43,585 bases of DNA from NCBI GenBank assembly GCA_041175285.1, contig JBEDFG010000006.1, positions 1-43,585 of the forward strand, given 5' to 3'. The notes under the pieces were generated by a model. That model was not told the DNA's origin. It saw nothing but the letters and a program-made list of their open reading frames with translations, and did no database searches. The translations under genes were made by a program, and so were the position numbers. Below are positions 26,499 through 29,764 of this stretch, in pieces. This stretch comes from Bacteroidota bacterium (GTDB lineage Bacteria > Bacteroidota > Bacteroidia > Cytophagales > Spirosomataceae). Each line of letters opens with the position of its first letter. The first letter of the stretch is position 1.

Positions 26499-27917
26499 AT
26501 GTCTACAGGCCTGAAACCCTTTATTGGCATTACAGGCGGAATAGGATCCGGCAAATCGATGATTTGTCGGATTTTTTCTATTCTAGGGATTCCTGTCTTT
26601 GAAGCCGATCAAGTTGCTAAAACAATTTGCGATACAGATCCCGAAGTAAAAGCAGCGATTATAGAAGAATTTGGTGCGCAGGCATATTTAGCCGATGGCA
26701 GCTACAACCGCGAAGGCATCAAAAAAATATTACAAAAATACCCTCAGGACATCGAAGTGCTCAATCAAATCATTCATCCAGCGGTGCGCAAAGCAGCAGC
26801 AACTTGGCTTGAAACCGCAGCAGATGCCCCATTCTATTTATACGAATCCGCCCTGATTACCCCTAAAAATAAACCTGCTCATTTAGACCAGCTTATTGCT
26901 GTATCATGCCCGCTAGAAGAACGAATCAGTAACATTCAAAAAAGAAAACATATGAACTACATGCAAACCATGCAGATCATTGATCTTCAACCTAAACCTA
27001 CAAGCTATATGAAAGGCGCCGAATTCATCATTGAAAACAGCCAAAAAACAAGCATTTGGCCACAAATTGAACAAATTTACAAAAGTCTGGGTGGCGTTAT
27101 GCTCATGCTCTTAATCAGCTTAAGCAGCTTTGGACAAATCAAAACCATGACATTTAATATTCGTTTGGATACCGATTCAGATGGGCAAGACCAATGGAAA
27201 TACCGTGCAAAACATTGTGCAGAATTAATCAAATACCATGAGGCTGATATCATCGGGATGCAAGAAGCATTTGTACATCAAATCAAGGATTTTGCGAAAG
27301 AACTACCCGGATACAAGTGGTTTGGAAAAGGGCGAGATGATGGCAAAGAGGAAGGTGAATTCTCTCCCCTATTTTACAATACTCAAAAATTCAAATTACT
27401 CAAAGAGAGCACTTTCTGGCTTTCCGATTCCTGTGAAAAAGTAGGTTTTGGTTGGGATGCGGCTTGCCGAAGAGTCATGACTTGGGGACAATTTCAAGAG
27501 ATCAAATCGGGCAAAAAATTCTATGTTTTTAACACGCATTTTGACCATTTAGGGAAAGTAGCCCGACGGGAAAGCGCCAAGCTCGTACTTCGTAAAGTAA
27601 CTGAAATCGCAGGGAAAACTCCAGCCATTATTACCGGTGATTTTAACGCGACTCCAGATGATGAACCGATTCAAATTCTGGTTGACCCATCAAATCCCAA
27701 CAAACTTACGGATGCTGAAAAAATTAGCAAAAAGGGACACTATGGCCCATATAGCTCATTTAATGGATTCAAAAAAGAACAAGATGGACGTCACATTGAC
27801 TACATATTTGTTAAAAATGGTGTGCGGGTAAACCAACATGCCACCCATTCAGAAACATGGGAAAACCACTACCCGACAGATCATTTCCCCGTTAGCGCGG
27901 TTGTGGAATTGCCTTAA
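26499..27917 (+). CDS. coaE: Dephospho-CoA kinase fused in frame to an endonuclease/exonuclease/phosphatase (EEP) domain
   Basis: Residues ~1-195 have GITGGIGSGKS, ADQVAK, IIHPAV. Residues ~213-472 have TFNIR, GMQE, NTHFDH, GDFN, IDYIF, TDHFPV. No stop codon between the two parts. Confidence 0.85.
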   Translation: MSTGLKPFIGITGGIGSGKSMICRIFSILGIPVFEADQVAKTICDTDPEVKAAIIEEFGAQAYLADGSYNREGIKKILQKYPQDIEVLNQIIHPAVRKAAATWLETAADAPFYLYESALITPKNKPAHLDQLIAVSCPLEERISNIQKRKHMNYMQTMQIIDLQPKPTSYMKGAEFIIENSQKTSIWPQIEQIYKSLGGVMLMLLISLSSFGQIKTMTFNIRLDTDSDGQDQWKYRAKHCAELIKYHEADIIGMQEAFVHQIKDFAKELPGYKWFGKGRDDGKEEGEFSPLFYNTQKFKLLKESTFWLSDSCEKVGFGWDAACRRVMTWGQFQEIKSGKKFYVFNTHFDHLGKVARRESAKLVLRKVTEIAGKTPAIITGDFNATPDDEPIQILVDPSNPNKLTDAEKISKKGHYGPYSSFNGFKKEQDGRHIDYIFVKNGVRVNQHATHSETWENHYPTDHFPVSAVVELP

Positions 27918-27958: not shown

Positions 27959-29764
27959 ATGGAAAATTTTATCGTTTCAGCCAGAAAATACAGACCCACC
28001 CAGTTCGACTCGGTGGTTGGCCAAAGCCACATTACTACCACCCTAAAAAATGCGATTAAGTCAAATCATTTGGCACAAGCATTTTTATTCTGTGGTCCCC
28101 GTGGTGTAGGAAAAACAACCTGCGCGCGTATTTTGGCAAAAACGATTAATTGTGAAAACATAGGAACCGACGGCGAGGCTTGTGGAACCTGTCCATCATG
28201 TACTTCATTCCAGGAAAACACCTCCTTAACCATACATGAATTAGATGCTGCGTCAAATAATTCGGTTGAAGATATCCGTAACCTCATTGATCAGGTTCGC
28301 TATCCTCCGCAACGTGGGCGCTACAAGATCTATATCATTGATGAGGTGCACATGTTGTCTTCCGCAGCATTTAACGCATTTCTAAAAACATTAGAGGAAC
28401 CTCCTTCCTATGCTATCTTTATTTTAGCGACGACGGAGAAACATAAAATTTTGCCTACTATCCTATCTCGTTGTCAAATATTTGACTTTAATCGAATTCA
28501 ATGGAAAGATATGGCGAGCCATTTGGCATCCATTGCTGCCAAAGAGAATATTCAAGCGGAACCAGCGGCGTTGGAATTAATTTCCATCAAAGCAGATGGC
28601 GGATTACGTGACGCGTTATCCATGTTCGACTTAAATGTCACTTTTTCAACCGACAATGCCTTACGTCATAAGGACGTATTGGAGAATTTGCACATTCTCG
28701 ATAGCGATTATTATTTGCAAATTACGGACCACATGACGACTCAGAATCATGTAGGAGCCTTAGTTTTGCTGGATGAAATCATGCGAAAGGGATTTGATGG
28801 CCAGCAATTCATTTCTGGATTTATGGAGCATTTGCGGAATTTACTTTTCGCCAAAGACCCTCAAACACTCGCATTAATGGAGATCAGCGATGAATCTCGT
28901 GCGAAATTTAAGCAACAAGCAGAAAAGACAAGTACCTCGTTTCTATTGTCCGCCATGAACATTTGCTCTCAATGTGAGACCAATTACAAATCGGCCAAAA
29001 ACCCTAGATTACACCTTGAACTTTGCCTACTGAAGATCAATTATTTGCCTTCGGTATTCCAACCTGCGACGGAGGGCGGTGGTGGAAAAAAGGCTGAGCC
29101 CCAGGCGAAAGCCGCTGGGGCCAAAACAACTGACCAAGCCCCTGCACCTACTGAAACGCCTAAAACACCTGTTTTTGATCCGACACCCCCTGTGGTAGTT
29201 GCGGTAAACGAAAAAACGGAGACACCTCCTGTGGAAACGCCGGTGCCTCAAGCTACTGCTCCCACACCAGTTGAGCCAACAAAGCCTAGCATGGGTTCTG
29301 GATTACGTTCCGCGAAAAAGGTCGTAGACACAAAAAGCAACGAGCCTAGCGCTGAGGATTTATCAGCCCTAACGAACGACCCTACTAAAAACCAAGTATT
29401 TACACTCGAAGCATTAATGAGTGTATGGAAACAGATCGCATCTGAATTCCAGGAAGCGAATTTGATCAATAAGTTTGTTATGATGAACCGTCCCATCGAA
29501 CTTGTCGATACGGTCATACATATGAAAGTGGAGAATGAAGTACAAGTTCAACAGTTCAATGAAAATGTACGTCTGGAGGTATTGGGAAAAATACGTGAGC
29601 GACTTCAAAATTACAGCATCGACATTGCTCTAGATGTGACAGCTACGGAAAAGAGCGACAAGAAAATGTTGTATACACAATCAGATAAATACGAGTTCCT
29701 CGTTCAAAAACACCCTATTTTGGGCGAAATGAAGCAGAAACTAGGCCTAGATCACGAATATTAG
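27959..29764 (+). CDS. dnaX: DNA polymerase III subunit tau/gamma
   Basis: ARKYRP, GPRGVGKTT, Cys zinc module, ELDAAS, IIDEVHML, LKTLEEPP, SRC; Pro/Thr-rich linker after residue ~380. Confidence 0.95.
   Translation: MENFIVSARKYRPTQFDSVVGQSHITTTLKNAIKSNHLAQAFLFCGPRGVGKTTCARILAKTINCENIGTDGEACGTCPSCTSFQENTSLTIHELDAASNNSVEDIRNLIDQVRYPPQRGRYKIYIIDEVHMLSSAAFNAFLKTLEEPPSYAIFILATTEKHKILPTILSRCQIFDFNRIQWKDMASHLASIAAKENIQAEPAALELISIKADGGLRDALSMFDLNVTFSTDNALRHKDVLENLHILDSDYYLQITDHMTTQNHVGALVLLDEIMRKGFDGQQFISGFMEHLRNLLFAKDPQTLALMEISDESRAKFKQQAEKTSTSFLLSAMNICSQCETNYKSAKNPRLHLELCLLKINYLPSVFQPATEGGGGKKAEPQAKAAGAKTTDQAPAPTETPKTPVFDPTPPVVVAVNEKTETPPVETPVPQATAPTPVEPTKPSMGSGLRSAKKVVDTKSNEPSAEDLSALTNDPTKNQVFTLEALMSVWKQIASEFQEANLINKFVMMNRPIELVDTVIHMKVENEVQVQQFNENVRLEVLGKIRERLQNYSIDIALDVTATEKSDKKMLYTQSDKYEFLVQKHPILGEMKQKLGLDHEY
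29071..29121 (+). promoter_or_regulatory. Putative -1 programmed ribosomal frameshift signal in dnaX
   Basis: GGAGG at 29071-29075, in-phase A AAA AAG at 29086-29092, -1 frame stop TGA at 29095-29097, GC-rich hairpin at 29098-29121. Confidence 0.8.

Follow-up and report, generated by a model that had tools for sequence, protein, structure and literature searches.

The dnaX locus

The stretch analysed here (the window) is the 43,585-nt contig JBEDFG010000006.1 of assembly GCA_041175285.1, from a freshwater Bacteroidota of an Aquirufa-like genus (g1) in the family Spirosomataceae, and our subject is a candidate −1 frameshift cassette inside its dnaX gene. Close homologs bear the name Aquirufa in their sources, and a named neighbour in the dnaX tree points to Spirosomataceae. 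The gene (27959..29764, + strand; Pfam PF13177, PF22608 and PF12169; homologs named DNA polymerase III subunit gamma/tau) encodes a 601-aa tau with an AAA+ domain, a lid, a domain III, a Pro/Ala/Thr-rich linker and a tau-only C-terminal domain of residues about 470–601 (29366..29764, + strand). The tail matched DUF8439 clusters of the ESM Atlas at 0.96 and one cluster with PF12170 on 36% of its members at 0.94, which offers a lead to tau domain V. Since Pfam places the end of domain III at residue 370 and the shift site occupies codons 376–378, the site follows closely on the clamp-loader domains and divides them from the tau-only tail; an earlier note on this DNA had likewise put it at the end of these domains, before the Pro-rich linker.

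Codons 376–378 read GGA AAA AAG (Gly-Lys-Lys, 29084–29092), and the in-frame slippery heptamer A_AAA_AAG they contain (29086..29092, + strand) is the sole AAAAAAR of the coding sequence. In the −1 frame the reading is AAA AAA GGC TGA (K K G stop), with the TGA (29095..29097, + strand) one codon past the heptamer, closing a predicted 379-aa gamma (...GGKKG) as compared to 601 aa at full length. Upstream lies GGAGG (29071..29075, + strand), an internal Shine-Dalgarno (SD)-like element read as NNG GAG GNN and complementary to CCUCC, the core of the 16S tail in this genus, and separated from the heptamer by a 10-nt spacer (29076..29085, + strand), the same length as in Escherichia coli. The earlier note had proposed the in-phase heptamer with its immediate −1 stop and the GGAGG 10 nt upstream, and our coordinates and reading agree with it on each of these points.

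On the 3' side a stem-loop is predicted at 29098..29121 (+ strand; −15.5 kcal/mol, z −2.4), consisting of a 6-bp GC-rich outer stem, a bulge and a 3-bp inner stem. The same note had described a 9-bp GC-rich hairpin with a GAAA loop starting 5 nt downstream of the heptamer. The start and the outer stem (GCCCCA/UGGGGC) are firm, but a 2-nt bulge interrupts the helix, the inner 3 bp are less certain (frequency of the minimum free energy structure 0.30, with the inner stem in another register in the centroid) and the GAAA loop is not kept among close relatives. The window hairpin was nevertheless stronger than all 60 synonymous recodings (−16.7 vs −6.6 ± 2.2). The genome holds 90 in-frame A_AAA_AAG sites in 1417 ORFs (open reading frames); among them the dnaX site has the strongest 3' hairpin (−16.5; next −9.7), GGAGG is found nearby in 3 and a near −1 stop in 20 of the 90, and the dnaX cassette exceeds what is expected by chance.

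In E. coli, A_AAA_AAG and G_GGA_AAG, the latter being the heptamer of some relatives, rank among the three most efficient −1 motifs (PMC4066793). With a strict search pattern, which would miss a divergent gene, tRNA-Lys was found with the TTT anticodon alone in 5/5 genomes, and ARAGORN found one tRNA-Lys(TTT) in the window's own genome (64% complete). A genome with a G_GGA_AAG site carries six identical tandem tRNA-Lys(TTT) genes about 160 bp apart (L224–L230; G108:C6, about 1954500–1955360).

In the gene preceding dnaX (26499–27917, + strand) dephospho-CoA kinase (CoaE) is fused to an endonuclease/exonuclease/phosphatase domain, with a hydrophobic stretch resembling a signal peptide between the two. 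An open frame of 472–492 codons containing the CoaE start was found in 26 of 28 genus loci with a full upstream region, and CoaE alone in the other two.

Conservation of the cassette

A dnaX match was obtained in 61 of 64 genomes of the genus, and all 61 were read. Every one keeps GG-AAAAAAG, the −1 stop one codon later and the upstream GGAGG, at 10 nt in 60 genomes and at 13 nt in one. A short heptamer stands in place of a poly-A run in seven Spirosomataceae genera: A_AAA_AAG in g1 (61/61), g39 (3/3), g8 and g9 (one each), and G_GGA_AAG in g20 (24/24 loci, 23 genomes), g4 (6/6 fetched) and g37 (one). Sampling of g20 and g39 was extended once the pattern had been seen, and a single genome with 7% contamination supplied two of the 24 g20 loci; L031 (coding sequence identical to a counted locus), L191, L193 and eleven re-fetched loci were dropped. 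GGAGG is present in all 97 loci of the seven genera, with a spacer that is variable in sequence and 10 nt long in 96 of them (13 nt in one), inside the 9–14 nt at which an SD stimulates −1 shifts (PMC5009743). The CCUCC core was found in the 16S of 5/5 genomes, and the 16S tail of relatives reads GGAACACCTCCTTT. When loci were classed by their heptamer alone, GGAGG was present in 52/52 A_AAA_AAG and 14/14 G_GGA_AAG loci, and stood at 9–14 nt in 0/128 poly-A loci.

The bases of the cassette are fixed where the protein is not. In 97/97 loci GAG is preceded by a codon with G in third position, although this codon encodes eight different amino acids, and GGA AAA AAG is invariant in 54/54 tabulated A_AAA_AAG loci. 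Among 70 loci tabulated codon by codon, the Glu, the last Lys and the Gly each used a single codon (GAG, AAG and GGA), whose gene-wide shares are 32%, 29% and 35%, respectively, and residues flanking GGAGG and the heptamer vary freely. Judged by these fixed synonymous positions, the cassette is under constraint at the nucleotide level. When the heptamer is G_GGA_AAG the distance from the SD stays at 10 nt, while the peptide register shifts from E-x-x-x-G-K-K to E-x-x-x-x-G-K; the distance to the AAG codon is thus kept despite the change of register, and therefore ribosome geometry would fit better than a need of the peptide. The near stop of the A_AAA_AAG genes is fixed in the −1 frame only, at the same position in 65/65 single-ORF loci. 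A +1 stop within 8 codons occurred in 18/53 A_AAA_AAG loci, near the background of 0.40, as compared to 63/83 in poly-A genes.

Two other roles for GGAGG were considered and rejected. As a start signal for an internal protein it would serve GTGs at 29079 and 29082, which open a short +1 frame that is not kept in relatives, and as one half of an mRNA helix it would need a CCTCC partner, which was found within 120 nt in just 7/66 loci and is not conserved. In an equilibrium fold of 190 nt GGAGG pairs with 29134–29150.

The hairpin is the most variable part of the cassette, weak or absent in several clades. It reaches −9 kcal/mol or better in 55/65 loci, being strong in the window clade and absent from most G_GGA_AAG loci, and the same 3' position is held by hairpins of unrelated sequence in different clades. 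Six single-ORF g20 genes (L135 and L171–L175) combine the SD and G_GGA_AAG with little or no predicted hairpin, an A-rich 3' side and a −1 stop six codons on.

Split dnaX genes

The window dnaX is a single ORF of 601 codons, and a split layout is found in 19 relatives with the same SD cassette. In 18 of the 24 g20 loci a zero-frame stop stands at the heptamer (15 loci) or one or two codons later (3 loci), and a tau-like tail continues in the −1 frame. Sixteen of these tails are complete, with 193–250 codons aligning to window residues 380–601; the other two extend past the end of the locus. In the tail frame an ATG first occurs anywhere between codon 8 and codon 149, and in L246 there is none; 16 of the 18 loci have no hairpin better than −5 kcal/mol. 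One of the three g39 genes is likewise interrupted, by a TAA directly after A_AAA_AAG, and has a 9-bp hairpin and an overlapping ATG. The split genes with the SD cassette contain no homopolymer to mis-assemble.

Because the gene stops at the heptamer and its tail lies in the −1 frame, tau in the split g20 loci would depend on the shift, and GGAGG would be the sole upstream stimulator common to these mostly hairpin-less loci. The stop codon adjoining the heptamer may also help the shift by slowing the ribosome. Tau has been described as the essential form in other bacteria (bioRxiv 10.1101/2022.11.10.516041), and by analogy it is presumably essential in Bacteroidota too. The split genes are, as far as sequence can tell, the best genomic argument both for a real shift and for a contribution of GGAGG to it.

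In one split g20 locus (L112) the linker of tau, in the −1 frame, has tandem 7-residue repeats (SNQLAVN/NQLPVTN-like) right behind the site, and related repeats were seen in other split g20 loci.

Poly-A runs in other Bacteroidota

Outside the lineage with the SD cassette the sample comprised 148 loci, 79 of them from named Bacteroidota, 27 from other families of the order and 42 from the same family. A run of A8–13 occupies the same dnaX position in 128 of the 148 (ten A's in 102), 20 have neither run nor cassette, and in a class and phylum sample A9–11 was found in a further 17 of 20 loci. In 45 of the 128 poly-A genes the run separates two ORFs; 41 of them continue the tail in the −1 frame and four (L076, L087, L106 and L219) in the +1 frame. 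The single-ORF poly-A genes have near stops in both shifted frames (−1 in 78/83, +1 in 63/83; background about 0.35), which is the pattern of Thermus (PMC1088944, PMC3711429).

As the run is spread over other families and orders, it would represent the ancestral state, probably acting through RNA-polymerase slippage, and within one branch of Spirosomataceae the SD cassette likely replaced it. In trees of the clamp-loader domains (119 rows in a quick and 41 rows in a careful analysis) the SD loci fell into two supported clades among poly-A relatives. The position of the site in the protein also differs from that in E. coli. Since the position differs and the gene nests among poly-A Spirosomataceae, common descent with the enterobacterial cassette is not indicated, and the Aquirufa-like cassette would be convergent with E. 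coli dnaX. Transfer from Proteobacteria was ruled out on these same two grounds, by a tree that held no proteobacterial row.

In nine poly-A loci (L048, L071, L122, L123, L141, L144, L196, L200 and L216) a GGAGG of the same codon register stands 4 or 7 nt ahead of the run, and such elements could have been raw material for the SD cassette. Just behind domain III, the dnaX of Pontibacter rugosus (L034) has an A7 run (A_AAA_AAA_G) preceded by AGGAG and followed, one codon on, by a −1 stop, together with a hairpin of −13 kcal/mol, possibly an independent move toward a ribosomal-type site. Three Bacteroidales-type genes (L045, L053 and L088) end at 366–383 aa with neither poly-A run nor heptamer; they may encode a protein of gamma length only, or tau may be made there in another way.

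Mechanism and alternative explanations

Taken together, we consider it very probable that the dnaX site directs a programmed −1 ribosomal frameshift, giving the 601-aa tau and a predicted 379-aa gamma. The E. coli-type −1 reading put forward in the earlier note thus holds at the level of sequence, in 61/61 genus genomes and in split relatives with a −1 tau tail. The elongating ribosome would pair the CCUCC of its 16S tail with GGAGG when its P and A sites contain the Lys codons AAA-AAG and the hairpin is at the entry channel. The tRNA-Lys(UUU) pair would then slip back to AAA-AAA, read one codon and stop at TGA, leaving a gamma of 379 aa whose C-terminus falls shortly after domain III. Such pairing would require the 16S tail to be out of the bS21/bS18/bS6 pocket, at least during a pause or in a sub-population of ribosomes, and a long pause has been proposed to let the anti-SD out (PMC8710568). 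That SD pairing with 16S is the everyday stimulator of the dnaX shift appears to us a fairly probable explanation. Both inferences of the earlier note are favoured: convergent origin strongly, by the different site position and the poly-A-nested tree, and use of the anti-SD in elongation to a lesser degree.

Several observations weigh against this explanation. GGAGG can pair with no more than five bases of the anti-SD core, and it is avoided before starts in this genome, being found at 2/799 starts vs 1.26% of control windows inside genes, in keeping with the earlier note's remark that Bacteroidota generally initiate without an SD. GGAGG is also found closer, at 1–7 nt, in 12/128 poly-A loci, and in three of these the distance would be 10 nt if counted to a heptamer further along the run. 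The hairpin beats synonymous recoding (p ≤ 0.05) in just 34/53 A_AAA_AAG and 5/13 G_GGA_AAG loci and is weak, almost none, in the L027 group. Of the two marks of selection that the earlier note had proposed to look for among relatives, synonymous-site conservation was found (GAG, AAG and GGA fixed) and stem covariation was not: in the window-type hairpin 0/11 pairs had changed on both sides among six close sequences, so the hairpin is without support from covariation. The SD-cassette loci are moreover kin, so that their counts are not independent, and a single origin is no more than possible, the two clades being joined in 54% of bootstrap trees and one origin not being rejected (approximately unbiased test, p-AU 0.35). 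At L111 an ATG overlaps the stop, and the tail could start afresh.

The ribosome itself adds to these objections. bS21 keeps Tyr54 in 5/5 genomes, and bS18 keeps Tyr32, Arg34, Lys37, Ser38, Ile40, Asn56, Glu57 and Gln58. Residues of bS18 were numbered by offset to chain 7jil_w, which we take to be from Flavobacterium johnsoniae. This offset reproduces the residues named in PMC7797042. Phe50 of bS18 is Tyr in two of the three SD-lineage genomes read, and Trp100 of bS6 is, by offset, Tyr, likewise in a poly-A relative. As bS21 Tyr54 and most of the bS18 contacts are kept, the anti-SD-sequestering pocket is predicted to be intact in this lineage. A lineage-specific loss of the pocket was not found, Tyr54 being kept and the bS6 change being shared with the poly-A relative. 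The rpsU of the window's own genome (L233) and of four others (L231, L232, L234 and L235) has no SD upstream (5/5 genomes), unlike the autoregulated rpsU of F. johnsoniae.

In a first alternative the −1 shift is real but GGAGG is unpaired in ordinary growth, acting only under stress or in bS21-poor ribosomes, or through another route such as the E-site codon, the nascent peptide or a binding protein. Its precedent is prfB. In F. johnsoniae, where the anti-SD is sequestered, the prfB SD does not raise shifting in normal growth unless bS21 is mutated, although this SD is kept across Bacteroidota (PMC10798248), and AGGAGGT was kept in prfB of 5/5 genomes we examined. An internal SD in Bacteroidota is thus not new in itself, and its conservation does not prove everyday use, because prfB keeps an element that F. 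johnsoniae normally leaves unused; for this reason the SD function at dnaX is one that we infer. The sequestering residues of bS21 and bS18 fit this alternative as well. However, the prfB SD is inherited from far back, whereas the GGAGG of dnaX appears solely with short heptamers and at a fixed, −1-type spacing. The 16 of 18 split G_GGA_AAG loci without a predicted hairpin, whose tau tail would depend on the shift, the lack of a conserved mRNA partner, and bases that stay fixed among varying amino acids also speak for pairing, and we regard an unpaired GGAGG as rather unlikely.

Slippage of RNA polymerase on the short purine run GG-AAAAAA-G (or GGGAAAG), with GGAGG and the hairpin acting on transcription, would give the same −1 outcome by a one-base insertion, and poly-A is the state at this position in 128/148 loci outside the lineage. 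Productive slippage has, however, been described on runs of 8–9 A or more (PMC1088944), and here there are six, or three in G_GGA_AAG. The terminal AAG, a ribosomal signature, is invariant, and no +1 stop is fixed. In 5 of 8 runs the contigs from RNA libraries cross the heptamer with no indel, and in 3 they do not cover it, a weak point since contigs drop minor variants. Slippage at this site is in our view very improbable. Just as improbable is the absence of any recoding, with a conserved E-G-x-x-G-K-K peptide and the C-terminal domain of the split relatives as a separate, re-initiated protein: the TAATG at the L111 junction and stand-alone 124–135-aa tail clusters in the Atlas would suit it, though gene callers would yield the latter from split genes, but synonymous positions are fixed, the −1 stop keeps one position, the tail frame has its first ATG at varying places or has none, and neighbouring residues vary freely.

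Returning to frameshifting with SD pairing, its furthest-reaching form is that one branch of Bacteroidia swapped polymerase slippage for ribosomal frameshifting by way of a new, working internal SD in ribosomes considered blind to it, and that in most species of one genus the essential tau arises solely from a hairpin-less shift of SD, G_GGA_AAG and stop. Arguments for and against this whole seem to us evenly balanced. If true, elongating Bacteroidia ribosomes would free their hidden anti-SD routinely, or bS21/bS18 occupancy would tune tau:gamma and tie the composition of the replisome to the state of the ribosome.

Comparison with known systems

The E. coli design, poly-A dnaX genes and two-ORF dnaX genes are already known (PMC3711429). 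In the open full-text literature available to us, including parts of PMC13000453, PMC6771820 and bioRxiv 10.1101/2025.10.02.679949 and with subscription papers outside its scope, we found no report that describes the switch, a dnaX gene with G_GGA_AAG, or a cassette of SD and heptamer in the dnaX of Bacteroidia. The genomes described here would document, inside one family, a change of dnaX from one recoding mechanism to another at a single site, and their annotations miss gamma or show dnaX as broken.

With E. coli dnaX the window gene shares A_AAA_AAG, an SD-like element 10 nt upstream, one codon followed by a −1 stop and a stem 5–6 nt downstream (PMC5009743, PMC3711429). In the E. coli K-12 record AGGGAG precedes A_AAA_AAG by 10 nt, the −1 frame reads K K E stop, and a stem is present. 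There the site is at codon 428, about 70 residues into the linker, whereas here it is at codon 376, just behind domain III. The SD-like elements differ (AGGGAG vs GGAGG), the hairpins are unrelated, relatives of the window gene use G_GGA_AAG, some of these need the shift for tau, and the host ribosomes are SD-sequestering. The textbook E. coli design would have been invented here a second time and independently, with even its 10-nt spacing reproduced.

The dnaX of Thermus thermophilus, with transcriptional slippage on A9, likewise gives two products, and the poly-A run in dnaX of other Bacteroidota is located at the position of this site. The window gene differs in having six A's ending in AAG, an SD and only a −1 stop; its run stays below 8–9 A, and near stops in both shifted frames are lacking. 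Two-ORF dnaX genes that need recoding for tau have been tied to A7–A10 runs and to presumed transcriptional slippage (Antonov et al. 2013, PMC3711429), with 17 such genes, 5 of them without poly-A. A two-ORF candidate in Chlorobium phaeobacteroides is said to have E. coli-like stimulators, in an unpublished remark in PMC5009743. The same layout is found here in 19 SD-cassette and 45 poly-A relatives, some of which may already be among the 17. The window gene is by contrast one ORF, and in the published text at hand the split genes were not tied to SD and G_GGA_AAG.

The nearest parallel on the side of the ribosome is the +1 frameshift SD of prfB in Bacteroidia (Naeem et al. 2024, PMC10798248), where selection again maintains an internal SD while the ribosomes hide their anti-SD. 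That element is ancient, stands at 3-nt spacing and is dispensable in normal growth, whereas the one in dnaX serves a −1 shift at 10 nt and was likely gained within one family. The GGAGG of dnaX also precedes a shift without which some species would make no tau, so that in the split species a form described as essential in other bacteria would depend on an apparently newly gained SD. As this SD looks newly gained, dnaX would offer a sharper test than prfB of whether the anti-SD-hiding ribosomes of Bacteroidia use their anti-SD in elongation.

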